A DNA stretch of 64,000 nt from an uncultured bacterium (GTDB taxonomy: Bacteria; Patescibacteriota; Minisyncoccia; Phycocordibacterales; GWA1-40-21), in the NCBI GenBank assembly GCA_903831305.1, contig CAIKXE010000004.1, positions 9,026 to 73,025 of the forward strand. The letters are read 5' to 3'. Position numbers and translations under genes: made by a program. The notes under the pieces are model-generated. The model saw nothing but the letters and a program-made list of their open reading frames with translations, had not been told where the DNA came from and ran no database searches. This document shows, in pieces, positions 483 to 36,601 of this stretch (position 1 is its first letter; every line of letters begins with the position of its first letter).

Positions 483-2300
483 TTATAGCACAATTTCTAC
501 ATCCACAATTCTAAGCCGGAGTTCGGCAAAACCACGGAAGGTGGATTTTTCAAAGTTGGCCAGAAGGTTTATTCTATTGCCCACTTTTAGGGCGGGTCCA
601 TAATCAGTGTCCTTGGTAAAAAAACCAATTGCTTTGACGTCCCGCCCGCGGGAATTTTTAAATAACAACTCCAGATGATTTGCCTCCTTACCAAACATTT
701 TAACGCCTTCAATCATTACCTTTTCAAATAAGAATAAAGGTTTAGGATTCCCTACTCCGTAGGGGGCCAATTTTTCAATCAACCGATAATTTTCATTTGT
801 CACCTCATCAAAACTAATCTTGGCATCAGCAGTTATTTCTTCAGTCTCGATTTTACTTTTTATAATTACTTTTTCATAAGCTAACTGTAGTTTTTCTTCC
901 AACAAATGAACTTTTTCCTGCACCACGGAAAAACCACCAGACATATTATGCCCACCAAATTCTTCAAATATCCCCGCTTCCACTTCCATCATCAAATCAA
1001 TCACACTGGTACAACCATCACCCCGGCAAGAACCTTTTAAAATATTTCCACCATCCCGGCCCCAGAGAAATACTGGCCGAGCATGATCATCCACTAAAGA
1101 GTTAGCCACCAGCCCCAAAAGAGATGGCTTCCACTCTGGATTGCCGATAACTACAACTTTTTTTTCGGTCGTACCGTCAGAATATCTCTCCCGCATTATC
1201 TTCCGGACTTCTTTGACTATTCCCGCCACTACCCCTTTTCTTTCATTATTAATATGATCCAAGTGGCGAGCTAAAATATCCGCTTCTTCATCTGTCTTGG
1301 CCACAAATAATCTAAAAGCATCCTCTGGGTCACCCATCCGCGAAGCGGCGTTAATTCGTGGTGAAATAGAAAAACCGATATCATCCTCGGTAATATTTTT
1401 TTGCTCAATTTTTAACAAAGACAAGAGTTTCATTAGTCCCACCCGCGGAGATTTACGCAAAACCTTTAAACCATAAAATGCCAAAGCTCGGTTCTCCCCA
1501 ACGAGCGGAACCATATCAGATAAAGTAGCAATCCCCACCATGTCTAAAAACCATTTTTCGTGACCGCTTTTAATTGCTGACAAAATACCCAGAATACCCT
1601 CGGAATGATTAGCCCGCCTGCCGACTTCTAATGGCGGGCAGGTCTGCGTTAAATGGAGAGGGTGTTGTGGGGATTTTGTCAGCAACATGGCTTGAACTAA
1701 TTTGAAGGCCACACCGGCCCCACATAAATCTTTAAATGGATATTTACTATCTGTCCGCTTGGCGTCAATGACAGCGATGGCATCCGGCAAAACCTTACCT
1801 GGTTCATGGTGATCTGTAATAATCACATCAATTCCGTGCTCCTTTGCCCGAGCCACCTCGGCCACATCCGCAATGCCACAATCTACGGTAATAATCAAAC
1901 CTACTTTATCTACTTTAAACTTCTCTATCGCCTCATGATTTAAACCAAATCCCTCCAAGTGCCGATGTGGAATATAATTGGCAAAATCCGCATAACCAAT
2001 TTTTTCAAAAAAATCATGGAGGATTACTCCCCCGGGAATACCATCCGCATCATAATCACTGAAAATAACTATTTTTTCTTTTTTTTCGATTGCCAGCAAA
2101 ATCCGCTCCACGGCAACAGCCATATCAGGTAAAAGAAATGGATCATTTAAATCTCGTTCATAATCCGGCTCTAAAAACTCTTCGGTTTCCTCCTTAGTTT
2201 TGATTCCCCGGTTCCACAGTAAAATTTTTAGCAATTCTGGATACCCGGCTAGTTGTTCTAACCTTTTTTCATCTCTAATTTTTGACTTAAACTCTGACAT
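483..2300 (-). CDS. recJ: Single-stranded-DNA-specific exonuclease RecJ (DHH/DHHA1)
   Basis: 605 aa. DHH motif region IVIFSDYDADGIPGG...VDCGIADV...ITDHHEP. Domain order and size match RecJ. Confidence 0.85.
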   Translation of the reverse strand: MSEFKSKIRDEKRLEQLAGYPELLKILLWNRGIKTKEETEEFLEPDYERDLNDPFLLPDMAVAVERILLAIEKKEKIVIFSDYDADGIPGGVILHDFFEKIGYADFANYIPHRHLEGFGLNHEAIEKFKVDKVGLIITVDCGIADVAEVARAKEHGIDVIITDHHEPGKVLPDAIAVIDAKRTDSKYPFKDLCGAGVAFKLVQAMLLTKSPQHPLHLTQTCPPLEVGRRANHSEGILGILSAIKSGHEKWFLDMVGIATLSDMVPLVGENRALAFYGLKVLRKSPRVGLMKLLSLLKIEQKNITEDDIGFSISPRINAASRMGDPEDAFRLFVAKTDEEADILARHLDHINNERKGVVAGIVKEVRKIMRERYSDGTTEKKVVVIGNPEWKPSLLGLVANSLVDDHARPVFLWGRDGGNILKGSCRGDGCTSVIDLMMEVEAGIFEEFGGHNMSGGFSVVQEKVHLLEEKLQLAYEKVIIKSKIETEEITADAKISFDEVTNENYRLIEKLAPYGVGNPKPLFLFEKVMIEGVKMFGKEANHLELLFKNSRGRDVKAIGFFTKDTDYGPALKVGNRINLLANFEKSTFRGFAELRLRIVDVEIVL

Positions 2301-2367
2301 TAGGTGATTATAGCAAAAATTTCATCTAATGACTTAAAAACATAAGAAATAGATACCCAAAATTCTA

Positions 2368-4107
2368 CTAGGGTGTACAAGCATCACCGGTTACACAACT
2401 CGTCGTGTAAATACACTGCTTGGGACTAGGAGTAGAGATATATGAGAACATACAACCAGGAGGGGGGCCTGCGAATGTCTCACATGTAGAAGGAGGAGTT
2501 AGCGGTGAACCAGAACAAGTTGGCAAAACAGGTGCTGGTTCGTTGCAAATTATGCCTGAAGGAGCACAGGTAAAGTTTGTGGGGTTATAAACACACTGCA
2601 TTGGATTAGTGATTGACTCCCAGCTATTATTACAAGCGGCCGGACCAGCAAGTATCGTCGAGCAACCGCTTAAAGTCTCTGAGCCATAGCAGGCTATCGG
2701 ATCAGCAACCACCGTAAAGGGAAGTGTAGTCTCTACATCCCCTTCGGAACAGATGCCATCAATAGGACGAGAACAATAAAAACTAAATATTGTGCTATAT
2801 GATCCGGAAGTCGGTGGAGCAGTCAAACCAACATTCCACTTTTCAGTAGAAGAATCGTAAGTGGCATTTTGGCTTCCTGCTTGATCGTATGACCAATACT
2901 GGACACCAAAACCCCTATCTGGAGCACCAACCAGACCGTCTGAAGCTATTGTGCTGATAACATAAGTCATTGCTTCACCAGGAGAGTATGAAGCTTTATG
3001 ACCACTGATAGTCATAGAGTCTGCGGTTAGGTCCGGTCCGGCGGGTGGCTGATCAGCCGTCCACCTGGCATACAAAGTAATATTGACAGAACCCATCACC
3101 GAAGTAGAACCTGGCGTTTGATCCATACCCGTACCGTCGGCAAGCCAATTCCAACTAGCAAAGGTATAACCAGTTTTAACAAGAGAACCAGTGTTGCCTA
3201 AAATTGTAAATAAATCCCCGTTAGCATAATTATTTGAATCAACCGGCACTGAACCACCAGTATTACCGTTACCGCTATAAGTAACACTGTATGTAACAGC
3301 TCCCGGAAGCTCGCCCGCGGTAGGCAAACAATCATCATATGTCACCGTCGCTGTACCAGATTGTGGTATAAAACCAGTGTATTGTCCAGCTGGACCAGTA
3401 TTACTAAAAAATGGTGCATCACTTGGGGAACCGGGCGTAGTACCGATCAACCAGAGAGAATTAGCACTATTATAATAAACACTGTAAGTGCCAGTGTCTC
3501 TAGAGTAAACCGGCTGACCATTAGTACTTCCGTTCTCATAATAATTTCCTGCCACTGAGACATTACCACCGGTGACAACATAACCAGGAACACCAGAAGA
3601 ACAGGCCACTCCCCCCGTACCAACTTCGTCAGCCACACCACAATCAGCCGCACCCGGGGCACTATTCTTGGCCTGTGACTTGCCCGTACTATCTACACAC
3701 CACCCACCACCAGTGACTAGGGCATGCCACATAGAGTAAGCATTGATTTCCCCGCCAGCGGTAGCATCAGAATAACAAATAGGAACAACAGACAAACCAT
3801 CAATCGCCGGCCAAGCCCAAGGGGTCATCAAGTCCCCAAAAGCAGAGTTACTCACCAGTCCCTCACAACCATTATCACTCGTAGCTATACCATAACCACT
3901 ATTACCAAAAGCCAAACCAGAAGCGACTCTGATACTTGATAACTGACTTTTGATAAGTGTATCCCTAGATTTATTCCTAGCCGAATTTATAGAAATAATA
4001 ACCACCGAGGCTAAAATAGAAATAATTGATATAACGACTAAAAGCTCTATAATAGTAAACCCTCTCACCAACTTTTTTTTTAACTTATTAGTCACCCTTT
4101 TAATCAT
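2368..4107 (-). CDS. Type IV pilin-like protein (prepilin N-terminal methylation domain) fused to a large Cys-rich, B-repeat-containing C-terminal domain
   Basis: N-terminus KKKLVRGFTIIELLVVISIISILASVV matches the prepilin cleavage/methylation motif G|FT(L/I)IE. It contains a YSVTYSGNGNTGGSVPVDSNNYANGDLFTILGN...GYTFASWN B-repeat-like unit and a C-terminus with many Cys. It is paralogous to 4189..5199 over the first 150 aa or so. Confidence 0.7.
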   Translation of the reverse strand: MIKRVTNKLKKKLVRGFTIIELLVVISIISILASVVIISINSARNKSRDTLIKSQLSSIRVASGLAFGNSGYGIATSDNGCEGLVSNSAFGDLMTPWAWPAIDGLSVVPICYSDATAGGEINAYSMWHALVTGGGWCVDSTGKSQAKNSAPGAADCGVADEVGTGGVACSSGVPGYVVTGGNVSVAGNYYENGSTNGQPVYSRDTGTYSVYYNSANSLWLIGTTPGSPSDAPFFSNTGPAGQYTGFIPQSGTATVTYDDCLPTAGELPGAVTYSVTYSGNGNTGGSVPVDSNNYANGDLFTILGNTGSLVKTGYTFASWNWLADGTGMDQTPGSTSVMGSVNITLYARWTADQPPAGPDLTADSMTISGHKASYSPGEAMTYVISTIASDGLVGAPDRGFGVQYWSYDQAGSQNATYDSSTEKWNVGLTAPPTSGSYSTIFSFYCSRPIDGICSEGDVETTLPFTVVADPIACYGSETLSGCSTILAGPAACNNSWESITNPMQCVYNPTNFTCAPSGIICNEPAPVLPTCSGSPLTPPSTCETFAGPPPGCMFSYISTPSPKQCIYTTSCVTGDACTP

Positions 4108-4188
4108 AGAGATAATAATAACATAAAATATGCTTTTGCACTTTAAATTGGAGAGCTTCCAGCATAGAAAATATAAAAAGTAAGCCTG

Positions 4189-5199
4189 TTATGGGGCTAA
4201 ACAAATAACACCAGCTACACAACCATTAATAGTCCACTCACACCGTTTAGGGGTCGTTAGATTTTGCCAAGAATTATTACAAGCAATAGGAGGGGCCATA
4301 CCCAACGAAGCACAAGTATTGTTATTGGCAATCCTTGTGGGAGGGCAAGCTGATGCAGGTATCGATGGCTCTACCACCATAAAAGAAAGTGTAGTCTCTA
4401 CCTGTGCAGTAGAACAGATACCATCATTAGGACGAGAACAATAAAACTTAAAGGTTAAACTATGCGGACCCGTACCACTCGGAGCAGTCAGACTAGCCGT
4501 CCATAATTTAGTTAAAGAATCATAGCTACCTATACTATAATTTGTTCCGCCATCAAATGAGTATTGGATACCAAAACCTCTATCAGGACCAGTAGACCCG
4601 CCGTCAGAGGCTGTTGCACTAATAGTGTAATTCATTGACCCTCCAGGAATGTATGAGGAAACACCACCACTAACACTAATAGAACCAGCTGTTAAGGAAG
4701 TAATTACGGCCGGTGGTAGCCCATCTACGTCTCCACAGTCAACAGAGTTTGGCGCACTATCTCTAGCTTGTGACTTACCCGTACTATCCACACACCACCC
4801 ACCACCAGTCACTAGGGCATGCCACATAGAATAAGCCGTGATTTCTTTATTTGCCAAGGCATTGGAATAACAGGTAGGAACAACAGATAAACCATCAGTC
4901 GCCGGCCAAGCAGAAGGAGTCATTAAACCCTTAAGGGCAGAATTATTAACCATACCCTCACAACCATTATTAGTATTAGCTAGACCATAACCACCATTAC
5001 TGCTAAAAGCCAGACCAGTGGCCGCCCTAATACTTGATAACTGACTTTTAATAACAGTATCTTTAGATTTATTCCGCGCGGAATTTATAAAAACTAAAAC
5101 AATAGAAGTTAAAAAGGCGATGATGGAGATAACAACCAAAAGTTCTATGATAGTAAACCCTCGGTTCTTACTCTGTGAGTATGTAAAATCTTTTTTCAT
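4189..5199 (-). CDS. Type IV pilin-like protein, paralog of 2368..4107
   Basis: N-terminus NRGFTIIELLVVISIIAFL carries the prepilin motif. The block SARNKSKDT(V/L)IKSQLSSIR...GCEG(M/L)V.NSA...MWHALVTGGGWCVDSTGKSQA is shared with the upstream paralog. The C-terminus is Cys-rich. Confidence 0.7.
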   Translation of the reverse strand: MKKDFTYSQSKNRGFTIIELLVVISIIAFLTSIVLVFINSARNKSKDTVIKSQLSSIRAATGLAFSSNGGYGLANTNNGCEGMVNNSALKGLMTPSAWPATDGLSVVPTCYSNALANKEITAYSMWHALVTGGGWCVDSTGKSQARDSAPNSVDCGDVDGLPPAVITSLTAGSISVSGGVSSYIPGGSMNYTISATASDGGSTGPDRGFGIQYSFDGGTNYSIGSYDSLTKLWTASLTAPSGTGPHSLTFKFYCSRPNDGICSTAQVETTLSFMVVEPSIPASACPPTRIANNNTCASLGMAPPIACNNSWQNLTTPKRCEWTINGCVAGVICLAP

Positions 5200-5237
5200 A
5201 GTAATAACTATAACATAAAATATGCTATAATATTAGT

Positions 5238-5567
5238 ATGAAAGATGAAAATTGTATATTTTGTAAAATAGTAGCTAAGGAGGTGCCAGCGGAAATCCTC
5301 TTTGAAAATAAAAATTTAATAATTCTTCAGGATATAAAGCCCTCGGCCCCTTTTCATCACCTGATAATCCCCAAAGAGCATATCCAGTCCGTAGCTCACT
5401 TAGAAGAAAATGACCGGGAGATTATTGCGGATTTATTTTTTGCTGCCCGTGATGATGCTAAAAAAGCCGACCTCAAGGGCTACAAAACCATATTTAATGT
5501 CGGCCGAGAGGGCGGACAAATCATTGACCACTTGCACCTCCACCTCATGGGTGGGTGGGCTAAATAA
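5238..5567 (+). CDS. HIT-family (histidine triad) nucleotide hydrolase
   Basis: 109 aa. C-terminal histidine triad HLHLHLMGG. TATAAT lies about 7 nt upstream of the ATG, so the transcript may be leaderless. Confidence 0.85.
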   Translation: MKDENCIFCKIVAKEVPAEILFENKNLIILQDIKPSAPFHHLIIPKEHIQSVAHLEENDREIIADLFFAARDDAKKADLKGYKTIFNVGREGGQIIDHLHLHLMGGWAK

Positions 5568-6600
5568 TACTCTCAATCTGAAACTTTTTATTTAAATTCA
5601 CTTTTTTAAGGATCACTTTTTCTATTCTTTTACTACCCGGATTTATTTCTACCTCTAAGAGCCCGCCTTGCATCGTCTCGGGAGAAAAATACTGATCAAA
5701 GATAAAGTTACCCAGACTATATATAATGTAGACATTTTTATATTGCTCTAACGTCTGTACCACATGCGGATGGTGACCGATAATCAGATCCGCCCCGGCG
5801 TCTATAGCCAGCTTTGCATATTTCTGTTGAAAATCATTCGGCAATTTTTCATACTCCTCACCAAAGTGATATGAAACTACTACTAAATCAGCCTCTGCTC
5901 TAGCCTTACTAACACTCTCCGCTATTTCTTTTTCTAATACCATAGCCATACCCGGACGAGTGGAAGTACTGTTTACTCCCCCATCTCTAAACTGACTAAA
6001 GGTCAGAAAAGCTACCTTTACCCCCTCAACGTTAATAACCTTTCCAGCATAAGCCTCTGAACCTGAAAACCCCCCGCCCACATAGGTAATACCATTTTCT
6101 GCTAGCCTACTTAGGGTATCGGTAAAGGCTTCCCCTCCCCAATTAAAAGTATGATTGTTAGCCACCGAAAAGACAGTAAAGCCAACGGCCTTTAAGGCAG
6201 GCAAGACCTTGGGATCAAAACGAAAGGAATATAGGCCACCCTGATCCACCCCACGGTCTGAAATCGGCCCCTCTAGATTAGCAAACAACAAATCATAATT
6301 GCTCAGCTGATCAGCCACCTCGGAAAAAAGCCCGGCATAATCGCCGGCAAAATTTTTAGAGACCGAGCTTTTCACCCCGCGATCAAGCATCATATCCCCG
6401 ACAAAAGCCACCGTCAGGTGACCATCAATCCCCGCCTTAGTTAAGGCGGGGCGGTTGTATTCTGTTAAATCCGCCACAGTGGCGACCTTGGGAACCTTTA
6501 TTGGACTTATAAAATAAAAACAAAAAAGGTTAATTACAAAAAAAGTTAAAACAAAAACGCCCAGACCCCAGATAATTTGTTTTTTTAGATTAGTCCACAT
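5560..6600 (-). CDS. CapA-family metallophosphatase (poly-gamma-glutamate synthesis CapA-like)
   Basis: N-terminal TM segment, then a calcineurin-like phosphoesterase motif region (GDMMLDRG...NLEGP...ANNH...GHHPH) typical of MPP_CapA. Confidence 0.7.
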   Translation of the reverse strand: MWTNLKKQIIWGLGVFVLTFFVINLFCFYFISPIKVPKVATVADLTEYNRPALTKAGIDGHLTVAFVGDMMLDRGVKSSVSKNFAGDYAGLFSEVADQLSNYDLLFANLEGPISDRGVDQGGLYSFRFDPKVLPALKAVGFTVFSVANNHTFNWGGEAFTDTLSRLAENGITYVGGGFSGSEAYAGKVINVEGVKVAFLTFSQFRDGGVNSTSTRPGMAMVLEKEIAESVSKARAEADLVVVSYHFGEEYEKLPNDFQQKYAKLAIDAGADLIIGHHPHVVQTLEQYKNVYIIYSLGNFIFDQYFSPETMQGGLLEVEINPGSKRIEKVILKKVNLNKKFQIESII

Positions 6601-7357
6601 TCTTTAGCAATTCACCAAACTTTCTGGCGTTCAAACTCTCTCGGCCGACCAAAAGACCCTGAATCTGGCCGGAGATAATCATCTCGCGAGCATTATTGTG
6701 ATTCACCGAACCGCCATAAATAATAGGCACGGTAATAGCCACCTTTTGATCATAAATTTCAGTCAAAACTTTTTTTATAAATATTGATGTTTCATAAATA
6801 TCCCCCGGTTTCATCGCCTCCTCTTCACCCTTACCGATCGCCCAAAGAGGCTCATAAGCTATGATTATTTTAGTTAAAAATCTTTTGGGTAATTTGCCAA
6901 GGGAATTAATAATTTGCCCACGTAAAAAATGCAGATAATCCCCGTGCAGGTCTCTCTCTTTTTCCCCTATGCACAAAATTGTTTTCAAACCCACTTTGCT
7001 GGCCGAAGATACTTTCTTGGCCACTACTTCATCTGTCTCCCCTAATTCCCGTCTTTCAGAATGACCTAATATTACATAGCCTTCGCCTGATAACATTCCT
7101 CCACTTATTTCACCAGTATAAGATCCGCTCTTTTCCCAAAACATATCCTGCGCCCCCAAAATAACAGCCGAGGAAGCCAAACCAGAATTTACTTTCTCCA
7201 AGTCAGATAAATAAACATAAGGTGGACAAATCACTACCTGAGTATTCTTTAAAGCCTTAGTCTCCTTCTTTATATCTTTAAAAATAGTTAAAGCGGAGCT
7301 GACATTTTCCGGATTCATCTTCCAATTTCCCACCACCAATATCTTATTTTTCTTCAT
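6590..7357 (-). CDS. tpiA: Triosephosphate isomerase
   Basis: ILVVGNWKMN...GHSERR...IAYEPLWAIGKG...GGS are the diagnostic TIM motifs. The start is the internal Met (MKKNKILVVGNWKMN) rather than the first Met of the track ORF. Confidence 0.85.
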   Translation of the reverse strand: MKKNKILVVGNWKMNPENVSSALTIFKDIKKETKALKNTQVVICPPYVYLSDLEKVNSGLASSAVILGAQDMFWEKSGSYTGEISGGMLSGEGYVILGHSERRELGETDEVVAKKVSSASKVGLKTILCIGEKERDLHGDYLHFLRGQIINSLGKLPKRFLTKIIIAYEPLWAIGKGEEEAMKPGDIYETSIFIKKVLTEIYDQKVAITVPIIYGGSVNHNNAREMIISGQIQGLLVGRESLNARKFGELLKNVD

Positions 7358-7391
7358 CCTAAAATTATACCATAAAATAAAAATTATATGG

Positions 7392-10298
7392 CTAGTTACG
7401 AACACAGCGGACAGAAAAACCATAATCTTTATCATGAGTGCTATTACGCTCAATAGTGGGTAGGCCTGACTCTAATATACGTGACCAGGCCCTGTTATTA
7501 CCATTCGGAGTAGATGACCAGATATAGGCGGCCGAATCCAAAAAGTTAAATCGGCTCGTATTTGTTGAAGGATAACGGTAACCAGACAGAAGAGCCTTAA
7601 ACAGTCCTACCCCTGATTTTAAAGTAGTACCCTCATTTGTTCCGCGATCGCCGGTGGTAGTCGTATCATAAGGAAAATCCGTAGTGCAAGTCCCTGAAGT
7701 ACAAACCGTCCGTTCCAGAGTGGTAAACTCCTCATGAGTAGGGATATGCCAGCCGGCCGGGCAGAGACCTTGGGTCCCGGGTGTCGTTATGCCACACATC
7801 GCCTGAGTCCACTGATATAAACCACCGTCACTGGTACAGTTGCTTTCAGTGTTACTATAACAATATTTTCTGATTGTGGTGCAGGTATTATTTTGATTAC
7901 TAGTAGCTGAAATAATAGTTCCGACATTTATATTTTCCGCCATCCAGCATTGGAGACCAATCAAGTTTATAGCGTAAGATTTGCCGTCTCTCGTATCCAA
8001 GGTAGTTCCACTACAATTTTCTAGCCAAACAGCGTATAAGGTACTACTAGATACACCCATGCTATATGTCCCCGTATCAGGATAAGCGATACTTCCTATT
8101 GTACTGGTGGCCCAACCAGCAAAGAAATATCCATCTCTGGTAAAACTGTTAGCAGTCAAACTTGCTTCCTCCCCGGTTACTATTATTTGAGGGGTCATGA
8201 CTCCCGTACCACCATTAGCATTAAAAGAAACAGCCGGACCCAGAGCCACCCACTCGGCATATAGGGTCACATTAGAGGCACCAATAATGAAGGCTGAGGA
8301 AGTGGCACGGCTAGTACCAGTACCATCAAGTGAAGTATTCCAACCAGAAAAATAATAACCGGTCCGAGCCAGATCCTCAGTGTTATCAAGGACCGTCACA
8401 ATATCACCTACTTCATAAGCATTGTGATCTACCGGGACAAAACCTCGAGTGTTACTGTTACCACTATAAGTGACCGTATAAACACTGACTGGGGTATATT
8501 CACTGGGAGTAAAAGCGATTTCTCTTTGTTGCCATGAGCTATTAATATTTATAGTCTCGCTCACGGGCTGATAGTCAGCCTTGGCCAAAGACAAATTATA
8601 ATTACCAGACAAAAGACCAGTAAAGAAAACCTGGCCGGGTGGTACACAGTCCGAGGTAAAGGTAAACGACACATCTGAAACCGTGGGCGTTTTAGTCAGA
8701 TCCGCCGTTTGTAAAAATATTTTATAACGTAAATAGCGGTCTCCATCATGATTTGAGTTTATCTCTTGACTGGTCACCGTATAAAAAGTGTCAGCCGTAC
8801 CATCTGGTCCCTTAAAATTCCAAACTTCACCACCACTATTGGTCGCCACTTGAAGCCGAATACTATCCAATCCCGTCTCCGCTGGCTGATCCTCTGGCTG
8901 CCACGAAATTTTATGAAAATTACTAGCTGACCCCGTATCAAAAGTAGAGGAGATAAGCCAAGTAGAAGTGGCATATTCACCCAAGGTGCTTTTTAGTTTA
9001 ATGGTTCCACCAAAACTAGAAATATCCGCATTACCGTCGGAGTCAAAATATTTGGCCGGATCAGAAAAATGGTCTTGACCAGCTCCACCAGCCCAATCCG
9101 TCTGACGTAAAAAGCCTCGGCCAGTAATGTAGGTCGTATCATACTCTGCCCCGGTCAGATTTACCGCTACCTCAGAAAGAGGCAGCCCCGTGGAAACATC
9201 TTTAACCGTGATAAGCAAGCTCTGCGGACTCTTAGGGCTAAGAATCAGCTTGACGGTCTGGATAGTATCAGGGCTCAAGGTAAAAGTATTGGCCGGAATA
9301 ACCCCAGCCAGATCATAAGTATCATCTGTCGTGGTTAGCTTGTAGGTATCCCAATCTAGGCCGGTGATACTTTCCTCCCCAGCACTATCAGTCGTAAATA
9401 AATCATCAAATTTGTAAATGTCCACTCCAATCAGTTTTTCACCGTGCAAAGAAAAATCAAAATTTGGCACAACCAAACAAGTATCACTGACGCTTGATAT
9501 CTGGAGAGTACTGGCTTTATCTATAAAAAAACTAATTTGGGTCAATTGTTGGAGACTGACCGTGGCATGGGTTTTGACCGGGTTTGGGTTAGCTGGCTCG
9601 CCGACGGGATATGTCCGCTCGGTAGTATAACCATCTTTAGAAACCGTTATCTCATAGACCTGTACCCCGGGTGGGGCATCCACAATCTGTAGCAAACCAT
9701 CATTATTAGTCACATCATCAATGACAAAGCTTGGCACAACACTATTATTTTCCACGTGGACGGAAGCACCCGGTAAGGGCACGCCATTGGCATCAAAAAC
9801 CTTGATAAACAAGGCGCCGTTAGTGGAAGCACTTTCCAGATTTTTAGGACCAATATAAGTAGTCACATTTATCGGAGGGAAATTACGGCATAAAGCACAG
9901 GTTATCTCTAATTCGGCTAATTTATAATCCGCTGGTGAGGTATCATTGACCATTCCACCGAGCTCCCCGTCAAAGGGGTCATCAATGTTTCTGATAGTTG
10001 TTATAACGACAAATTCCTTACCGTCACGAATCAAAGTCTGAGTATAAGGGATCTTGCCGGGGGGCAGGCCTCCAGCGATACCGACATCAGCATAAGGCAG
10101 ATTCCGCATTATTTCAAACTGTTCATTGGCCAAAGCAGTAGCGGTCACTTTTATACGCGAAACCCGTATTACGTCCATTGCTAATTTGTAACCCTGATAA
10201 ACAGAGAGCGCCAAAATAACAAAAATAGCACTACCAACTAAGACCTCTACCAAAGTCATCCCTTTATTTTTTACTCTAAAAAAATTTAACTTGAACAT
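7392..10298 (-). CDS. Pseudopilin/pilin N-terminal domain protein with B-repeat and a C-terminal Fibrobacter-succinogenes-major-paralogous (FISUMP) domain; putative pilus-displayed adhesin
   Basis: 968 aa. N-terminus KNKGMTLVEVLVGSAIFVILALSV is a prepilin-type leader. YSGNSNTRGFVPVDHNAYEVGDIVTVLDNTEDLARTGYYFSGWN is a Listeria-Bacteroides repeat. The C-terminus CWMAENINVG...DGGLYQW...CPAGWHIPTHEEFTTL...YRY...YIWSST matches the FISUMP consensus. Confidence 0.65.
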   Translation of the reverse strand: MFKLNFFRVKNKGMTLVEVLVGSAIFVILALSVYQGYKLAMDVIRVSRIKVTATALANEQFEIMRNLPYADVGIAGGLPPGKIPYTQTLIRDGKEFVVITTIRNIDDPFDGELGGMVNDTSPADYKLAELEITCALCRNFPPINVTTYIGPKNLESASTNGALFIKVFDANGVPLPGASVHVENNSVVPSFVIDDVTNNDGLLQIVDAPPGVQVYEITVSKDGYTTERTYPVGEPANPNPVKTHATVSLQQLTQISFFIDKASTLQISSVSDTCLVVPNFDFSLHGEKLIGVDIYKFDDLFTTDSAGEESITGLDWDTYKLTTTDDTYDLAGVIPANTFTLSPDTIQTVKLILSPKSPQSLLITVKDVSTGLPLSEVAVNLTGAEYDTTYITGRGFLRQTDWAGGAGQDHFSDPAKYFDSDGNADISSFGGTIKLKSTLGEYATSTWLISSTFDTGSASNFHKISWQPEDQPAETGLDSIRLQVATNSGGEVWNFKGPDGTADTFYTVTSQEINSNHDGDRYLRYKIFLQTADLTKTPTVSDVSFTFTSDCVPPGQVFFTGLLSGNYNLSLAKADYQPVSETININSSWQQREIAFTPSEYTPVSVYTVTYSGNSNTRGFVPVDHNAYEVGDIVTVLDNTEDLARTGYYFSGWNTSLDGTGTSRATSSAFIIGASNVTLYAEWVALGPAVSFNANGGTGVMTPQIIVTGEEASLTANSFTRDGYFFAGWATSTIGSIAYPDTGTYSMGVSSSTLYAVWLENCSGTTLDTRDGKSYAINLIGLQCWMAENINVGTIISATSNQNNTCTTIRKYCYSNTESNCTSDGGLYQWTQAMCGITTPGTQGLCPAGWHIPTHEEFTTLERTVCTSGTCTTDFPYDTTTTGDRGTNEGTTLKSGVGLFKALLSGYRYPSTNTSRFNFLDSAAYIWSSTPNGNNRAWSRILESGLPTIERNSTHDKDYGFSVRCVRN

Positions 10299-10348
10299 TT
10301 TATTTTCTCTCTATATATTTTAGCATATTTAATGCTATAATTCTCCCT

Positions 10349-10975
10349 ATGAAGAGTTCTTGGCCTAAAAAAAATAATCTTCAAGCTGGTTTTACCCTTA
10401 CCGAGATTTTAGTCGTTTCCTTTATCCTAGTCATTGTTGGCATAGCAATTGTCAACTTTCAAATAGATCTTTTCTCTTTAAACAAAGTTTCCAGTGATAA
10501 TATTGTAGTCCAAGAAGAAGCCAGAAGGGTACTCAAGGCCCTCACGGCCGAGGCCCGCGGTATGTCACCCTCCAATATGGGGGCATATGCTTTAGCCGAG
10601 ATTGGCACTTCTACAATTACCTTTTATACCAATACAGATAATGATACACTCCAAGAACGTGTCCGCTACTTTTTGGCTGGTACTACCCTTAAAAAAGGTG
10701 TCATTGAGCCAACGGGTACTCCGCTAACTTACAATACAAATAATGAAGTGATACGTGAGGTAGTGCACGACATAGCCAACGGTACAACTTCTATTTTCAC
10801 TTTTTTTGATACTAATTATGACGGCACATCACCCGCTTTATCAGAACCAATCAACCTACCGAGCATCCGTCTAATTAAAATAAACCTCATCATTGATCGT
10901 GACCCACTAAAGTTGCCGGCTCCTTTATCTATGACGACACAAGTATCTATGCGTAATCTCAAAGACAATCTATGA
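10349..10975 (+). CDS. Minor pilin / pseudopilin-like protein (prepilin N-terminal domain)
   Basis: LQAGFTLTEILVVSFILVIVGIAI is a G|FTLxE prepilin motif. At 208 aa it is the size of PilW/GspJ-like minor pilins. Confidence 0.6.
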   Translation: MKSSWPKKNNLQAGFTLTEILVVSFILVIVGIAIVNFQIDLFSLNKVSSDNIVVQEEARRVLKALTAEARGMSPSNMGAYALAEIGTSTITFYTNTDNDTLQERVRYFLAGTTLKKGVIEPTGTPLTYNTNNEVIREVVHDIANGTTSIFTFFDTNYDGTSPALSEPINLPSIRLIKINLIIDRDPLKLPAPLSMTTQVSMRNLKDNL

Positions 10976-12393
10976 TTATAAAAAAAATAAAAAAACGGGG
11001 CTATATTCTGATACAAGTAATTATCTTTGCTTCTATTTCTACTTATATTCTAGGGGCCCTGATCAGCTGGGCCGCCACTGATATCAAAGCCTCCAAACAA
11101 GCGGCTGACCGCGAGCTTGCCATCCAGATAGCTGAAGCCGGCATTGATTATTATCGTTGGCATTTAGCACATGCCCCGACAGACTATCAAGACGGCACTG
11201 AGCAAACCAGCACCTATATCCATGATTTTTTAGATAAAAATGGCACAGCCATCGGTCAATTTGCTCTAGATATTACACCGCCACCACTTGGATCAAGTCT
11301 AGTAACCATCAGATCCACTGGCAGTGTTTTAAAGACTCCAAATCTGACAAGGACGATTCAGGTCAAGTTAGCCAAGCCATCTATGGCCAAATTTGCCGTA
11401 GTGGCCAATGACTACATGCGCTTTGGAGAAGGAACGGAAGTTTTTGGTCCGATTCACTCTAACAAAGGTATTCGTTTTGATGGGCTAGCCCACAACATAG
11501 TTTCCAGTTCTGTCATTACGGCTAATGACCCGGACCATACAGGCAATGAAGAATTTGGGGTCCACACCCATGTCACTCCCACTGATCCTCTGCCACCGGC
11601 CAGTATACCAGACCGCTCAGATATTTTTGAAACCGGCCGGGCCGTGGGTATATCAGAAACTGATTTTGATGGAATTACTGGTGATATCTCTCAAATAAAA
11701 ACTCTAGCTCAGGAAGCAACTGGTTTTTGGCGCGCGGGCTCTGGTGCTTTAGGCTATCACGTAATACTGAAAACCAATGACACTTTTGACCTCAAACAAG
11801 TAAACACCATCACAACTGTGAGTTCCTGCAGTGAAAAATGGAGTATCGGCACGGAAACTCTTTTGGGTAATTTTCCTTTCCCGGCTAACGGGATAATATT
11901 TTTGGAAGACCATATTTGGGTGGATGGTAAGATAGATAGTGGCAAGCTCACCATCGTCGCGGCGACTCTACCAGAAAACGCCTCCACCTTGAGAAACATT
12001 ATAGTTAATAATGATTTATTATATACAAAATATGACGGTACGGACGTTATTGGTCTAATTGCTCAGAATAATATTTTGGTTGGTCTTGTTAGTGAGGATG
12101 ATTTACGAATCGATAGCGCCCTGATGGCTCAAAAGGGCAAAGTGGCTAGACTCTCATACAGCCAATCTTGTTCCTCAACTTATTATACGCGCCAGACCAT
12201 TACTCTGTGGGGCATGATTGCCTCCAATGTCAGATATGGTTTTGCTTGGGTTAATATTTCAACTAATCAGTTTATCTCCGGATATGTTAATCGTATTTTA
12301 TATTATGATAGTAATCTACTCTACAGCCCACCACCGAGCTTTCCCCTCACTTCAGACCAATATGTCACTCTCTCTTGGGAGGAGATAAAATAA
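10972..12393 (+). CDS. Pilus-assembly-associated protein (PilX-like N-terminal hydrophobic segment), hypothetical
   Basis: 473 aa. One N-terminal TM segment (GYILIQVIIFASISTYILGALIS). It overlaps the upstream minor pilin by 4 nt, which suggests translational coupling. I recognise no catalytic motifs. Confidence 0.45.
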   Translation: MIIKKIKKRGYILIQVIIFASISTYILGALISWAATDIKASKQAADRELAIQIAEAGIDYYRWHLAHAPTDYQDGTEQTSTYIHDFLDKNGTAIGQFALDITPPPLGSSLVTIRSTGSVLKTPNLTRTIQVKLAKPSMAKFAVVANDYMRFGEGTEVFGPIHSNKGIRFDGLAHNIVSSSVITANDPDHTGNEEFGVHTHVTPTDPLPPASIPDRSDIFETGRAVGISETDFDGITGDISQIKTLAQEATGFWRAGSGALGYHVILKTNDTFDLKQVNTITTVSSCSEKWSIGTETLLGNFPFPANGIIFLEDHIWVDGKIDSGKLTIVAATLPENASTLRNIIVNNDLLYTKYDGTDVIGLIAQNNILVGLVSEDDLRIDSALMAQKGKVARLSYSQSCSSTYYTRQTITLWGMIASNVRYGFAWVNISTNQFISGYVNRILYYDSNLLYSPPPSFPLTSDQYVTLSWEEIK

Positions 12394-12476: not shown

Positions 12477-13703
12477 TTACACATTATCCATCACGGAGTA
12501 GATCGGCGCCACCATAGATAGAGCAAAGAAGCCCACCGCCGCCCCAATAATGACCATGAGTACTGGTTCAATAATCGTAGAGAGATCTTTGGTTCTTTCC
12601 TCCACATCTAGTTCATAAAAAATAGCTACCTCAGTCAGCATATTGGACATATTTCCTGTCTCCTCCCCCACGCCCATCATCTCCCCCACAAAGGTCGGAT
12701 AATACTTAGGATTTTTCATAAAAATTGCTGAAATATTTTCTCCCTTCTCCACCGCCTTAGAGGCATCGTCTAGCACTTGCTTATAATAATGGTTTGTTAC
12801 AATATCTTTGGTAATCAAAATAGATTGAGCAATGGGGACGCCCGCCGTCAAAAGTGAGGCCAACGTTCTAGCTACCCGAGCCGAGTTAGCCTCCATAATC
12901 AAGTCCCCCACTACTGGTAATCTGATGACTAAATAATCCCTTAGATTTTTACCCATCATAGTTTTTAAAAAGAGATAAGTACCTGAGACCGCACCAATAA
13001 TAAATAAAATAGTTAAAATCCAGTGCCCCACCAAAAAGTCACTAAGTCCAATGATAACCCGGGTGGTAAAAGGTAATTCTGTATTTAGCTCCTTAAAAGT
13101 AGCAGTAATCCCTGGCACCACAAAGATAAACATCAGTATCCCGACGATGATCATCACAGTCACAATCACCGCTGGATAGATCATGGCTCCCTTTACTTTT
13201 TTCTGCAAACGGTAGGTCTTATCCATTTGCAAAGCCACATTACCCAAGGCATCAGACAAGCCACCGCTCTCCTCACCGGCCTTGGCCATAAAAATAAAAA
13301 GATTGGAAAAAATATTTGGATAACCCCGGAGTGATTCACTTAAAGTTTTACCTTTTTTGATTTCAAGATTAATACCTTCTACAATATTTTTTAGCCGGCC
13401 GGGCTTGCTCTGTCTTTCAATTACTGATAAGGCTCGGCTCAGGGACAGTCCAGACCTGGTCATCGCTGATAAATTTTTTGCAAAAGAAATCTTTTGGGCG
13501 ATGGAAACACCACCCAAGAAACTGAAAATTTTATAAAAATATACCTGCCATTTGGTATGGCTGATTTCCTTAGCTGAAATCAGAACACTACCCTCGGCCT
13601 TGAGGTCATTATATAAGTTAAATTTGCTTTGGGCTTCAACCACCCCTTCGTAACGCTCACCACTTTTTTTTATAGCGCTGAATTTAAAATGCATTTTATT
13701 CAC
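12477..13703 (-). CDS. pilC: Type IV pilus assembly platform protein PilC / T2SS GspF family
   Basis: 408 aa. Duplicated GspF domain architecture with three TM segments. It overlaps pilB by 8 nt. Confidence 0.85.
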   Translation of the reverse strand: MNKMHFKFSAIKKSGERYEGVVEAQSKFNLYNDLKAEGSVLISAKEISHTKWQVYFYKIFSFLGGVSIAQKISFAKNLSAMTRSGLSLSRALSVIERQSKPGRLKNIVEGINLEIKKGKTLSESLRGYPNIFSNLFIFMAKAGEESGGLSDALGNVALQMDKTYRLQKKVKGAMIYPAVIVTVMIIVGILMFIFVVPGITATFKELNTELPFTTRVIIGLSDFLVGHWILTILFIIGAVSGTYLFLKTMMGKNLRDYLVIRLPVVGDLIMEANSARVARTLASLLTAGVPIAQSILITKDIVTNHYYKQVLDDASKAVEKGENISAIFMKNPKYYPTFVGEMMGVGEETGNMSNMLTEVAIFYELDVEERTKDLSTIIEPVLMVIIGAAVGFFALSMVAPIYSVMDNV

Positions 13704-15453
13704 TTATTACCCGAAGCACTTCCTCGATCGTCGTTACCCCCTGGACCGCTTTAAAAATACCATCTTCAATCATACTGATCATCCCCTCTTTTTTAGCCTG
13801 CTCGTTTATTACATGGTCAGGCTCGCCCCGCACCACGAGTTCCTTGATAGTGGGAGTCATCTTTAGCACCTCACAGATACATACCCGCCCACCATAACCA
13901 TCTTTGGATTCAGCTGACTCCTTTGGTTTATAAAAAGGAATAGTTTCGATCGTTTCTTTATCTCCAATTATTTTTTCCTTCTGCAAAAACTCCAGCACCC
14001 GTTTAATATCAATAATCTTGGCCAAGGAGGCTACTTCAGATTTTGACAAAAAGTATTTTTCTTTATTGGCACTTAACCGACGAATGAGCCTTTGAGCAAT
14101 AATCACCTTCACCGTTGAAACAATGAGAAAAGGCTCAATCTTCATGTCCACCAGACGGGGCATAGCCCCAGCCGCCGAATTAGTGTGTAAAGTGGAAAGA
14201 ACCAAGTGCCCAGTCAAAGCCGCATTAATAGCCAGAGAAGCCGTTTCATTATCACGAATTTCTCCGACCATGATGATATCTGGATCCTGACGAACTAAAG
14301 AACGCAAACCATTGGCAAAAGTAAAACCAATTTCTGGTTTGACCTGGGTTTGGTTTATCCGATCCATCTGATACTCTACCGGATCTTCAATGGTAGAAAT
14401 ATTCACATCAGCGGTATTTAAAATATCAAGCAAGGTATAAAGCGTGGTCGTTTTACCGGAACCAGTGGGACCGGTTGTCAATATAAGACCGGTAGTCTGC
14501 TTGATCGCCTCATGTAAAATTTCTAAGGCCTCACCATGAAAACCCATGGCTTCCAAAGTAAAACCAGAAACATTTTCTCGTAACAATCGCATAACCGCCT
14601 TCTCACCAAAATAAGTCGGCAAGATAGAAACACGAAAGGATACCCCCTCTCCATTCACCTCCATTTTAAACCGGCCGTCTTGAGGCAAGCGCTTTTCATC
14701 TAGCTTCAAACTGGCGAGTACTTTGATTCTAGCAATGATACTAGAGGCCACACTTTTTGGCAAAACCATAGCGTCATGCAAAATACCGTCAATCCGGTAA
14801 CGGATCAGTAATTCGTTCTCCAAAACTTCAATGTGAATATCAGAAGCATTTTGTAGAATGGAGTGCTTGAGCAAAGTATCCAAAATACGAATCACCGGTA
14901 AATCCTCTGCCATCTTCTTCAAATCTTCCCCCGTACTACCTACTCCCCGATTATCAATCAGACTCTTAAGCGCCACCGCATCTTTCTGAATAATGTCACC
15001 AAACTCCGCCCGTAAACTTTTCTGATATTGTAACAAAGCGCTTTTGATAGAGTCACTATCTGTCAAACGCAATAGTATTTTCAAGCCAACCTTCTTTTTT
15101 ATAAACTCAATAGATGATAGATCCTTGGTATCAAGCATGGCCACTTCCAAAGTATCACCCTCGCGCCTAAAAGCAATAGCATTATTTTTTCTGGCCACTG
15201 GTTCAGGGATCAACGCTAAAATAACCGGATCAATTTTTTGCCCTTTCAGACTGACAAACGGAATACCTAGGACGTAAGCCTCAGCCCGCCGAAAATCATC
15301 CTCGCTAATCTTGGCATTGTTTATGAGCACGTGGCCAACGGTCAATTTATTTTTACTCCTGCCGGCTTCAGCCATAGCATTTTCATAATCTAGTTCAGTA
15401 ATTAAACCAGAGTCTAAAAGAAATTCCTTGAGCTGCTTTTCTTGAACGATCAT
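13696..15453 (-). CDS. pilB: Type IV pilus assembly ATPase PilB / GspE family
   Basis: 585 aa. Walker A LILTTGPTGSGKTTTLY, a GspE N-terminal domain, and Asp/His boxes. Confidence 0.85.
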   Translation of the reverse strand: MIVQEKQLKEFLLDSGLITELDYENAMAEAGRSKNKLTVGHVLINNAKISEDDFRRAEAYVLGIPFVSLKGQKIDPVILALIPEPVARKNNAIAFRREGDTLEVAMLDTKDLSSIEFIKKKVGLKILLRLTDSDSIKSALLQYQKSLRAEFGDIIQKDAVALKSLIDNRGVGSTGEDLKKMAEDLPVIRILDTLLKHSILQNASDIHIEVLENELLIRYRIDGILHDAMVLPKSVASSIIARIKVLASLKLDEKRLPQDGRFKMEVNGEGVSFRVSILPTYFGEKAVMRLLRENVSGFTLEAMGFHGEALEILHEAIKQTTGLILTTGPTGSGKTTTLYTLLDILNTADVNISTIEDPVEYQMDRINQTQVKPEIGFTFANGLRSLVRQDPDIIMVGEIRDNETASLAINAALTGHLVLSTLHTNSAAGAMPRLVDMKIEPFLIVSTVKVIIAQRLIRRLSANKEKYFLSKSEVASLAKIIDIKRVLEFLQKEKIIGDKETIETIPFYKPKESAESKDGYGGRVCICEVLKMTPTIKELVVRGEPDHVINEQAKKEGMISMIEDGIFKAVQGVTTIEEVLRVISE

Positions 15454-26121: not shown

Positions 26122-26179
26122 TACCGCCCTAACAAAAGCCCTCAGAATATACTTTCCGAATAAAGGGTGCAAAGCACTT

Positions 26180-26335
26180 CCACTAAATCCCCACCTTAGT
26201 TAAGGCGGGGTGGTGAGGCTTTGCGAACCGGGGCGGTGTGTCTGTAGGGAGTACCGAGTCAGCGAGGGGAGGTGGTATAAAAAAACGGAAACAAACAAGG
26301 GCGGGAGGGGGTGCAGCACCCCCTCCCGCCCTTTC
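26180..26335 (+). repeat. GC-rich structured intergenic element, family C copy 1
   Basis: Hairpin ccccaccttagttaaggcgggg plus the motif gggagtaccgagtcagcgaggggaggtggt (also present at about 32246 and about 46938). A perfect 15-bp-stem hairpin ggcgggagggggtgc/gcaccccctcccgcc follows. Confidence 0.6.
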
Positions 26336-26337
26336 CG

Positions 26338-26800: not shown

Positions 26801-26814
26801 GCAACAATAAAAAT

Positions 26815-35130: not shown

Positions 35131-36354
35131 TTACGGCTTCTCGGTATTATAAATATTCAATATTTCCTCTACCGAGAGAGCTTTACTATAAATACGAACA
35201 TTATCAACAACCCCAGTAAAAAAACCTTGGACCGCACCATAGGTAGCCTGAGCACCAAATACTGAAATATTTGCTTTTGTTGTTGCACTAGTAAAGATAC
35301 TATACAGCCATTTAGTTTTGTCGGTTTCAGTACCTATATTTAAACTTTTTTCTACACCATTTAAATAAACAACCGGCGATATTGCGTTTTGAGTAACGGT
35401 AATCATCCCCCAATTATTTATAATGGGATCTAATGTGTCAGTAGAAGTATAGTAACTCCACATTACAGAACTATCCTGATTAAGACTTATTGATAATCTA
35501 TCAAATCTCATATCCGGAACTATATACATTCTGGTTTGTCCGCTCCAAGAAGAAATTGACACAGCATGTCCTTCACTATAAATATCTGGCATTCTAATCC
35601 AAAAATTAACAGACCCGGTTGTATTTTGACTTAGAGAGGATGAACTAATACCACTAATGTCAATATAATCATTCCCATCAAACGCATACGCCGTATTAGA
35701 GAGTCCCTTCACCCCCGTAGTGGCAGTAGCACCAGTGACAGTACCGTTATTACTCCCCCAGTTATCATTCGCATTCCCATCAAAGGACCAGTAAGAGACT
35801 AAGTGATCTGGCAAGATACCGTCAGAGGGTCCTAGAGCAATGGTTTGAGACAGTTCAGCATTAGAGGCTTTGACATAGATCTTGTTAGCGGAGTTCTTAG
35901 CCACTAGGTAGCCAGTGGAGGTACCAGAAGACTGGGGGTCAGTAGGAATAGCTACTAGGTAAGTAGGGACTAGGGGTGATAGGTCGACATAGCCAGTACA
36001 GGAGACACTGTGAGGGGAAGAGGTGGCTCCAGTGTTACAGATCTCTCCTAGGTTAGTGGCAGGGACACCAGCAGGGTAAGTACCGTTATCTATATAGTAT
36101 TGGTATAAAGCTTTGTTGATTTCCGCTAGATTAGCCTTCCTTTGGGTATTACGGACTTGGGAGAACATCTTGATGGGGTTTAGGGCCAGGATGACGATAC
36201 TGGCGAGGATGGCGATGATACCGATGACGAGGAGGATTTCGAGGAGGGTAAACCCGCTCACTAACTTTTTTCTAAAAGTTAGTGAGCGGGTAAAGCCCCC
36301 ACTACGCTTTAGCTTCGCGGGGCAGGCTTTCTGTTTGTATGCTTTTAAGGTCAT
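35131..36354 (-). CDS. Type IV pilin-like protein fused to a C-terminal LamG/concanavalin-A-like lectin domain
   Basis: KLVSGFTLLEILLVIGIIAILASIV is a prepilin motif. The C-terminal approximately 200 aa show LamG_3-like features (FDG.DY....NVRIYSKALSVEEI). The start is assigned to the internal Met (MTLKAY...). Confidence 0.6.
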   Translation of the reverse strand: MTLKAYKQKACPAKLKRSGGFTRSLTFRKKLVSGFTLLEILLVIGIIAILASIVILALNPIKMFSQVRNTQRKANLAEINKALYQYYIDNGTYPAGVPATNLGEICNTGATSSPHSVSCTGYVDLSPLVPTYLVAIPTDPQSSGTSTGYLVAKNSANKIYVKASNAELSQTIALGPSDGILPDHLVSYWSFDGNANDNWGSNNGTVTGATATTGVKGLSNTAYAFDGNDYIDISGISSSSLSQNTTGSVNFWIRMPDIYSEGHAVSISSWSGQTRMYIVPDMRFDRLSISLNQDSSVMWSYYTSTDTLDPIINNWGMITVTQNAISPVVYLNGVEKSLNIGTETDKTKWLYSIFTSATTKANISVFGAQATYGAVQGFFTGVVDNVRIYSKALSVEEILNIYNTEKP

Positions 36355-36601
36355 GATATTAAATAAACCTGTGCTTAATATAATAGCATATATACTGCGA
36401 ACCAACACACCGTTTTGCTCAACTCAGTACCTAATTAGTCACAATTTCAAGTAAGCCATGGCTTACTTCAGCAAAGAGTATACTTAATATTATTATTGTT
36501 AAAGTGGTCAACGTGGCAGGTTGACCACCTTAGACAAAATACCAAGTGAACCATGGTTCACTTGGTATCGGTTACTAATATAATAACAAAACATTTCATT
36601 G

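Follow-up and report, generated by a model that had tools for sequence, protein, structure and literature searches.

Large pilin-leader proteins in a Parcubacteria-type pilus locus: candidate modular type IV pilins with putative host-binding heads

Modular pilins are proteins that begin with a class III signal and a pilin module and also contain domains that are not specific to pili. The InterPro census of Raynaud et al. (2021, PNAS) counted 1219 such proteins in 264 architectures, with many representatives from the candidate phyla radiation (CPR, Patescibacteria). The commonest architecture in Dataset S1 of that study is a pilin with PF13385 (LamG; 229 proteins), and the list also holds pilins with PF13620 (CarboxypepD_reg; 66 proteins), the combination IPR012902-IPR011871 (40 proteins, fifth commonest) and pilins with two IPR013378 B-repeats (9 proteins). 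Among the characterised members, PilB (vWA) and PilC (Ig-like plus ConA-like lectin) of S. sanguinis are tip-located adhesive subunits (PMC8179133, PMC9934059; Shahin et al. 2023). In the CPR, the Saccharibacteria strain TM7x has type IV pili with two large minor pilins, PilX1 and PilX2, whose C-terminal modules are lectin-like; binding to the host requires PilX2, with glycans as the implied ligand (PMC11623550). Here we describe a 64-kb stretch of DNA from an uncultured member of the Patescibacteria (contig CAIKXE010000004.1, hereafter the window), in which several large proteins with pilin leaders are encoded, most of them in the neighbourhood of pilB and pilC.

We read this as a type IV pilus locus of Parcubacteria-type Patescibacteria whose large proteins with pilin leaders belong to the modular type IV pilins and have host-binding heads, and we put the probability of this reading at roughly 0.72. 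The class is already known as modular pilins, and the locus represents no new kind of system. Flg_new, CarboxypepD_reg, Fib_succ_major and Laminin_G_3 domains were found above their gathering cut-offs in N_methyl proteins of the window, as in the proteins of the census. However, the characterised modular pilins, with their vWA or ConA modules, are those of a Gram-positive pathogen, and none has been studied with a FISUMP, B-repeat or Cys-rich module. The TM7x pilins likewise differ in their modules (beta-jelly-roll and RCC1 beta-propeller) and belong to another class (Saccharimonadia). What is new is the fusion of a cassette to a conserved core pilin, the assignment of a predicted C-type-lectin fold to FISUMP, evidence of head swapping between carriers, and relatives of these pilins that are targeted by diversity-generating retroelements (DGRs).

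The pilin-leader proteins and the C-terminal cassette of pil968

The analysis covered the window and 10 kb past each of its ends (84 kb in total). A six-frame motif scan of the 64 kb found exactly five class III signals, and the proteins that carry them, with their main parts, are the following.

2368..4107, minus strand: pil579, with a GspG/PilA-like pilin module (residues 1-160), a beta domain (161-265), a B-repeat (273-347), an Ig-like domain (360-470) and two Cys-rich tails of ~55 aa
3067..3291, minus strand: B-repeat of pil579, residues 273-347 (Flg_new, E 1.5e-7)
4189..5199, minus strand: pil336, with a pilin module, an Ig-like domain and one Cys-rich tail, lacking the 200-aa insert of pil579
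7392..10298, minus strand: pil968, a 968-aa putative modular minor pilin with a conserved ~600-aa core and a C-terminal cassette
8505..10298, minus strand: core of pil968, residues 1-598, with the class III signal, pilin helix, beta-sandwich and CBM-like domains
8028..8480, minus strand: two InlB-type B-repeats of pil968, residues 607-757, the putative stalk of the cassette (Flg_new_2 619-684, Flg_new 690-757)
7395..8012, minus strand: FISUMP domain of pil968, residues 763-968, the predicted C-type-lectin-like distal head
35131..36354, minus strand: pil407, with a GspG-like carrier pilin and a LamG (ConA-like) module
35161..35679, minus strand: Laminin_G_3 (PF13385) domain of pil407, residues 226-398 (43.9 bits, cut-off 27.6, model positions 2-150 of 151)
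10349..10975, plus strand: pil208, a 208-aa minor pilin with the leader G|FTLTEILVV, matched by N_methyl and TIGR02532

The initial annotation had listed four large pilin-leader open reading frames (ORFs) with a G|F cleavage motif. All four exist, those of 579, 336 and 968 aa being intact; the fourth, which had been given 425 aa, encodes 407 aa from the ATG of 35131..36354, and the greater length is reached only from an upstream GTG (35131..36408). Phe stands at +1 in pil579 (MIKRVTNKLKKKLVRG|FTIIELLVV), pil336 (...SKNRG|FTIIELLVV) and pil407 (...KKLVSG|FTLLEILLV), whereas the 968-aa protein has Met at this position (...VKNKG|MTLVEVLVG). A short basic leader, Gly at -1, a hydrophobic residue at +1, Glu at +5 and a hydrophobic helix of ~20 residues are common to all four. 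Their assignment as N_methyl proteins was borne out by NCBIfam TIGR02532, whose cut-off of 16.3 bits is passed by pil579 (26.6), pil336 (27.0), pil968 (21.2) and pil407 (21.3). With Pfam N_methyl (PF07963, cut-off 21.2) the first three score 27.6, 30.8 and 25.3 bits, and pil407, at 20.8 bits, falls 0.4 bit short.

The largest of these proteins is built differently from the other three, so the four do not form a single homogeneous set: pil579, pil336 and pil407 stand on GspG/PilA-like modules, whereas pil968, judged by sequence comparison, appears to be a highly conserved ~600-aa minor pilin to which a lineage-specific 370-aa C-terminal cassette has been added. Its homologues amount to 1803 database matches. 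The best 120 are 56-66% identical to it over residues 1-600 and are nearly all N_methyl plus CarboxypepD_reg proteins of 574-653 aa; 118 of them end at ~600 aa, and pil968 runs 370 residues further. The alignment of the core family contains more than 100 invariant columns and places the family end at residue ~598. Core relatives were found in 278 genomes in a scan that took one genome per species, and the best 80 loci were compared. In all 80 the match to pil968 extends only to about residue 598 (50-66% identity over residues 1-598, within the same operon), and the mature big pilin measures 579-595 aa in every locus where the motif scan called the ORF. These are the Parcubacteria-type N_methyl plus CarboxypepD_reg pilins (IPR012902-PF13620), and all 80 genome representatives stop at ~600 aa. 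Among the relatives compared, only pil968 and its orthologue P0002 extend beyond this point.

The additional 370 residues begin right at the ancestral C-terminus and consist of two InlB-type B-repeats followed by FISUMP. Besides the B-repeat models, the Pfam domains of pil968 are CarboxypepD_reg (166-229) and Fib_succ_major (780-967). The latter matches PF09603 with 105.8 bits (E 4e-30, cut-off 33.9, model positions 3-187 of 187) and TIGR02145 with 108.1 bits (cut-off 41.65, model positions 3-176 of 176), and together with the Flg_new and Laminin_G_3 profiles these searches confirm the earlier B-repeat, FISUMP and LamG calls. The five-part combination of N_methyl, CarboxypepD_reg, two B-repeats and FISUMP is absent from the list of Raynaud et al. 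(2021). FISUMP proteins have been described with an N-terminal lipoprotein signal (PMC11661182). The usual context of the domain, an N-terminal lipoprotein or Sec signal and multi-copy paralogues like those of Fibrobacter and the Bacteroidota, is not what we found here: FISUMP occurs once in the window, at the C-terminal end of a pilin. The B-repeat of pil579 is 44% identical to that of pil968.

The orthologue P0002 (1043 aa) is 81% identical to pil968 and has the same architecture with one extra B-repeat (a 77-aa indel). Identity between the two falls from 90.7% in the pilin module and 82.6% in the core to 66.7% in the B-repeats and 55.6% in FISUMP, so that divergence increases toward the tip end. 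The existence of this orthologue argues that the genes are not assembly artefacts. Moreover, the pil968 protein is identical on 11 contigs from several independent metagenome assemblies, which speaks against a chimera.

A pilin leader joined to FISUMP had been regarded as undescribed, and this did not hold up: N_methyl (PF07963) and Fib_succ_major (PF09603) occur together in 11 of the 120 database proteins most closely related to the 370-aa cassette, and one more combines a T2SSG pilin domain with FISUMP. IPR011871 in the fifth commonest census architecture is presumably the FISUMP entry, and the 11 database proteins provide a precedent independently of this mapping.

Structure prediction was carried out for the C-terminal domain and for the core. 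FISUMP models with a pLDDT (predicted local distance difference test) of about 90 as a C-type-lectin-like fold. Its fold-match list is headed by the DGR variable protein TvpA of Treponema (9.0), followed by the invasin-type InvE of Yersinia (8.4), PvdO and other proteins like FGE (~8), the C-terminal domains of Legionella Lcl (7.9) and Bdellovibrio Bd2740 (7.5), and TaqVP, Mtd and many animal C-type lectins (5-7). The Bd2740 domain is a predator fibre tip. These matches to bacterial adhesin and receptor-binding domains support the view that FISUMP of pil968 may serve as a ligand-binding head. The AlphaFold2 (AF2) model of the core (pLDDT 60-85) shows a helix at residues 16-66 and then beta-sandwich-rich domains. 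Its Foldseek matches in the PDB, all weak (TM score below 0.3), are to Ig-like stalks of Gram-positive pilins, a transthyretin-like carboxypeptidase domain and CBM86/CBM32, and we use them for no more than the statement that the core is probably rich in beta-sandwiches.

The pilB-pilC operon and the minor-pilin trio

The pilus-locus setting proposed in the initial annotation was confirmed for the region around pil968 and pil208, which contains these further genes.

10972..12393, plus strand: p473, a 473-aa pilin-like protein (KKRG|YILIQ) without Glu5, the conserved third member of the trio
12477..13703, minus strand: PilC platform protein (T2SSF, E 1e-56)
13696..15453, minus strand: PilB assembly ATPase (T2SSE, E 6e-122, plus MshEN)
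15558..24632, minus strand: 3024-aa surface protein with Flg_new_2 repeats, the same type of B-repeat module, adjoining pilB

The genes for pil968, pil208 and p473 adjoin PilB/PilC (12477..15453), and those for pil336 and pil579 lie 7-10 kb from them. The gene order PilB-PilC-pilin600-pilin195-p473-TIM...HIT-RecJ is kept across the 80 Parcubacteria-type loci: an orthologue of pil208 (192-199 mature aa) directly follows the 600-aa pilin in 78 of them, and an orthologue of p473 (~475 aa, 48-69% identity) is present in 77. These loci carry Patescibacteria labels. The informative ones are of the Parcubacteria group (Paceibacteria and Taylor-, Zambryski-, Kaiser-, Campbell-, Giovannoni-, Sungi-, Portnoy- and Nomurabacteria), and the many labelled "uncultured Candidatus Saccharibacteria" and the two labelled "uncultured Gammaproteobacteria" are suspected to be mislabelled.

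This arrangement resembles the GspH/I/J/K and PilV/W/X tip complexes in that a set of pilin-like genes accompanies the assembly genes, with one very large member and one without Glu5; here p473 has Gln at +5. The cluster differs in having only three genes, and in having its putative adhesive module within a pilin and not on a separate protein like PilY1. No significant match of pil968, pil208 or p473 to the GspH/I/J/K or PilV/W/X families was obtained with Pfam and NCBIfam profiles, and p473 has no Pfam or NCBIfam match at all; we infer that it is a candidate cap (K-like) subunit. PilY1-type adhesins likewise present a binding module at the tip (PMC9934059), where the module of pil968 may also be displayed.

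In the window pil208 and p473 lie on the strand opposite to pil968, PilC and PilB. The trio is co-directional with pilB and pilC in most genomes, whereas in L005 and L006, the loci of the nearest relatives, it is inverted as a block. The inversion of pil208 and p473 relative to pil968 is a nested one, with a divergent intergenic region of 50 bp (10299-10348). One breakpoint of the extra inversion falls at the 3' end at which the cassette was joined, and a causal link between the two is speculation. A promoter and terminator scan of 2200..10500 yielded nothing informative above shuffled expectation. ComEC lies 2 kb past recJ, which fits the known link between pili and competence in the CPR (PMC6744442).

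On the proposed mechanism, a prepilin peptidase would cut each protein after the conserved Gly (G|F/M), and PilB and PilC would polymerise the pilins through their hydrophobic alpha-1 helices, so that the pilin module serves as the carrier into the filament. By analogy with the HIJK and PilABC complexes (PMC9934059), the trio of pil968, pil208 and p473 (the latter without Glu5) would prime assembly and reach the pilus tip. The 600-aa core pilin, the putative tip subunit, has gained a B-repeat stalk and a FISUMP head in this lineage, so the priming pilin itself would bear a receptor-binding domain at the distal pilus end, with the stalk holding the C-type-lectin-like head outward to bind a ligand on the host surface. 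The C-terminal effector modules would bind ligands that are most likely host-cell glycans or surface proteins; an adhesive role for them is suggested by the C-type-lectin-like fold and the LamG assignment. Pil579, pil336 and pil407 might add further specificities, at the tip or along the filament, by displaying an Ig-like domain with Cys-rich tail, a B-repeat or LamG. The display of adhesin or lectin modules by pilin-type subunits, as the initial annotation proposed, has experimental precedent in S. sanguinis and the Saccharibacteria (PMC8179133, PMC9934059, PMC11623550), and for the present proteins it is suggested by their domains. Their many cysteines fit the MdbA-like/VKOR oxidative folding system that is enriched in the CPR (PMC6744442).

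Several observations weigh against this reading. The tip location of pil968 is an analogy: likeness to GspI/GspJ is confined to the N-terminal helix and lies far below the cut-offs (17.9/16.0 bits against 44/65; E 0.003-0.008). The AF2 model of the whole protein, built from a 30-sequence alignment, has a mean pLDDT of 51 with the C-terminal 370 residues unmodelled, the core model is moderate, and the folds that it matches are matched weakly. In pil579, pil336 and pil407 the carriers are like major pilins/GspG and not like minor pilins, and the gene for pil407 is ~20 kb away from those of the pilus. Neither a prepilin peptidase nor PilT or PilM/N/O was found in the window or the 10 kb on either side, and no prepilin peptidase was found upstream of pilB in the relative L038; PilD is reported to be widespread in the CPR (PMC6744442). 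We know of no experimentally defined ligand of FISUMP.

Carriers, heads and alternative readings

The neighbouring genes for pil579 (20 Cys) and pil336 (12 Cys, 8 of them within the last 83 residues) are tandem paralogues with a conserved upstream region. Their pilin modules are 74% and their Ig-like domains 45% identical, and the Cys-rich tail is common to both; the 200-aa insert found only in pil579 comprises an unassigned beta domain and the B-repeat. Pil336 has no Pfam domain except N_methyl. B-repeat proteins dominated the word-indexed search for homologues of pil579, and the family of the pilin module was seen through an exhaustive HMMER search with pil336: its module matches 13,824 representatives at E<=1e-3, mostly of 140-170 aa, and the Ig/Cys part matches only itself and pil579.

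On these data one could argue that pil579 and pil336 are major, filament-forming pilins whose Ig-like and Cys-rich domains (plus the B-repeat of pil579) decorate a thick heteropolymeric pilus, comparable to that of the 85%-identical PilE1/PilE2 of S. sanguinis. The module (residues ~10-155) is a full-length homologue of ordinary pilins, as 550 representatives at E<=1e-10 with 35-54% identity attest, the best NCBIfam match of the pil579, pil336 and pil407 carriers is the major pseudopilin GspG (below cut-off), the two genes are paired as described above, and no small classical pilin was found by motif and flank scans in the window or flanks. A position within the filament's body would be possible if the linker is flexible (Raynaud et al. 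2021). However, the one CPR organism that has been studied has small major pilins, and its large pilins are minor (PMC11623550), and an appendage of 170-420 aa on each subunit needs steric room. Furthermore, pil579 and pil336 have no counterpart at this position in the 80 loci, which implies that those genomes encode their major pilin elsewhere, and the genome of the window, of which 84 kb were seen, may do the same. We therefore consider this alternative unlikely. Small pilins beside the operon in L019, L024 and L031 were considered as major pilins of the pil336 type and rejected, as they are unrelated.

The same carriers bear other heads elsewhere. The few extended relatives on the pil579-type carrier have a B-repeat with an NHL propeller (P0360), a BspA-type LRR domain (LRR_5; P0278) or an Lcl_C-like domain (P0361). 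The carrier of pil407 shares 58% identity with the carrier of P0163, a pilin with FISUMP of 369 aa in total, and 48% with the carrier of P0130.

Two further observations concern pil407. In L006, the closest syntenic relative, a 702-aa protein with a Sec signal and two Laminin_G_3 domains (7837-9945, E 7e-40) is encoded between TIM and the 600-aa pilin gene, and its LamG sequence is closely like that of pil407; the same heads thus also occur on non-pilin surface proteins. Within the leader-coding region of pil407 (36243-36300, minus strand) there is a 27-nt inverted repeat with a 4-nt loop, the central 18 bp being perfect, which encodes GGFTRSLTFRKKLVSGFT, so that the G|FT motif for cleavage is present twice. 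The repeat has the look of a palindromic stretch of 42 nt that was inserted in frame into an ancestral leader of the form ...KACPAKLKRSGG|FT, to be compared with the leader KKACPAKLKRSRG|FT of P0278, and a GTG just before the second G|FT motif could be an alternative start.

Another reading is that these proteins never enter a filament and that their class III signal is only a membrane anchor or export route for surface binding proteins, or that they are parts of a pseudopilus like that of a type II secretion system (T2SS). The archaeal "bindosome" sugar-binding proteins carry class III signals. The LamG-bearing Sec-signal protein beside the L006 operon, the lack of linkage between pil407 and the pilus genes, and the missing retraction ATPase and peptidase in the window and its 10-kb flanks would suit such a reading. 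On the other hand, the orthologue of pil968 has been kept right after pilB-pilC in 80 genomes at 50-65% identity and with more than 100 invariant residues, which fits a structural component of the machine, and all the proteins retain Glu5, complete pilin modules and cysteines in a conserved disulfide pattern. A T2SS role is also not obvious in the CPR, which have no outer membrane (PMC6744442). On balance we regard this reading as improbable, and modular pilins remain the preferred interpretation.

The closest full-length relatives of the cassette are P0125 (in L089) and P0130 (in L092), proteins of ~555 aa in which a small GspG-like carrier is followed by two B-repeats and FISUMP, with the C-type-lectin-like fold of TvpA, Mtd and TaqVP. 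They are collinear with residues 607-968 of pil968 at 45-46% identity (46% for P0125). Each gene is followed by bAvd and then a reverse transcriptase (RT), at 3157-6833 of L089 and 4801-8462 of L092. The last ~185 nt of each gene form a variable region (VR), and a 91-93%-identical template region (TR) lies between Avd and RT; the template has A at 14 of 18 VR/TR mismatches in P0125 and at 9 of 13 in P0130, with AAY codons at the variable sites. Adenine-biased VR/TR pairs together with Avd and RT are the signature of a DGR, and by this signature P0125 and P0130 have DGR-hypermutated type IV pilin heads in complete target-bAvd-TR-RT cassettes. Three other pilin-FISUMP genes have no DGR nearby. 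FISUMP has been reported among the target domains of DGRs, with 43 such proteins, and in the searchable literature DGR-targeted pilins receive a passing mention only, as a "G-type pilin" among DGR targets (PMC11661182). The P0130 contig and the genome of the window share an RNaseH-ComEC-Lactamase_B neighbourhood at 67-76% identity.

The cassette of pil968 differs from these in being joined to a core minor pilin, with no DGR parts within the 84 kb: blastn (word size 7-11) of 7392..8100 and tblastn of the L092 Avd and RT against the window and flanks found neither a TR-like copy nor an Avd or RT homologue, and a DGR acting on the gene was rejected for this stretch. That the FISUMP head is instead the target of a DGR elsewhere in the genome, and hypervariable in the population, is highly improbable despite the precedent of its relatives and of the DGR variable proteins that share its fold, given the identical protein on contigs from several samples, the assemblies unbroken at the 3' end of the gene, and a C-terminal scaffold that differs from the TR of the relatives by an indel.

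Other features of the window and possible significance for host recognition

The 3024-aa ORF next to pilB starts with a signal peptide and contains two internal stretches like a transmembrane anchor followed by a new signal peptide (residues ~400-460 and ~830-880). Its first two segments of ~420 aa are repeated, and it holds internal tandem repeats (D1-D4), with 510-nt repeats in D1-D3, and the Flg_new_2 repeats; several surface proteins may have been fused to form it. Short GC-rich palindromic stretches lie in frame in housekeeping genes, namely recJ (1574-1685) and the CCA-adding enzyme ORF (39662), and also at 37667 and 38466. The RecJ peptide CPPLEVGRRA is missing from the 72%-identical RecJ of L006, three other ORFs contain peptides similar to ACPP..GGRR and the D20 repeat, and the stretches may represent a family of very small repeat elements that lie in frame.

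Between genes, an element of 80-84 nt is present three times at 97-100% identity, once inverted (38072-38155, 45783-45866, 57209-57288), and short GC-rich hairpin repeats (CCCCGCCTTAGTTAAGGCGGGG) are found at 6427, 26186, 28837 and 32171. The ~700 nt between nusA and the H+-pyrophosphatase gene (26121-26815) hold only low-quality ORFs and the repeat copies D11, D12, D17 and I16. At 42096-44537, direct repeats of 98 nt (91% identical) flank a 2.3-kb segment with an ORF for a TrmB-like regulator and overlapping ORFs of odd composition at 43137-43604, which may be a small inserted island. From 58179 to 64000, and on into L085/L086 past the right end, there is a Patescibacteria-type type IV secretion system cluster (TrbL_3 of 703 aa, PrgI, TraC-like, VirB4/TraG-type ATPase, T4SS_pilin). 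Next come yidC, rnpA and dnaA, which places the end of the window close to the origin of replication.

The Patescibacteria make up a large share of bacterial diversity, and of those in cultivation nearly all live in attachment to other microbes. Type IV pili are leading candidates for their host recognition, and to our knowledge only the Saccharibacteria have been tested. The window shows, in one genome, putative ligand-binding heads grafted onto pilins (FISUMP, LamG, and Ig-like with Cys-rich tails), one of them on a core minor pilin. Together with the DGR-bearing relatives, the locus offers testable candidate host-recognition proteins in Parcubacteria-type organisms.

The modules appear to swap between carriers, the same B-repeat/FISUMP cassette being found in a related genome on a pil407-type carrier, where it is mutated by a DGR. 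As a tentative extension, the receptor-binding heads of Patescibacteria type IV pili might be exchangeable cassettes, with B-repeat/FISUMP moving between a DGR-hypermutated GspG-like carrier and the conserved 600-aa priming pilin, on which it is fixed, and with LamG, LRR, NHL-propeller and Lcl-like heads swapping on the same carriers. If so, exchangeable heads would give episymbionts a system for switching their host range, the pilus tip being the organ of host recognition, analogous to the diversification of phage tail fibres (Mtd) and of the Bdellovibrio fibre tip. The locus would also provide a first structural and functional handle on the FISUMP domain.

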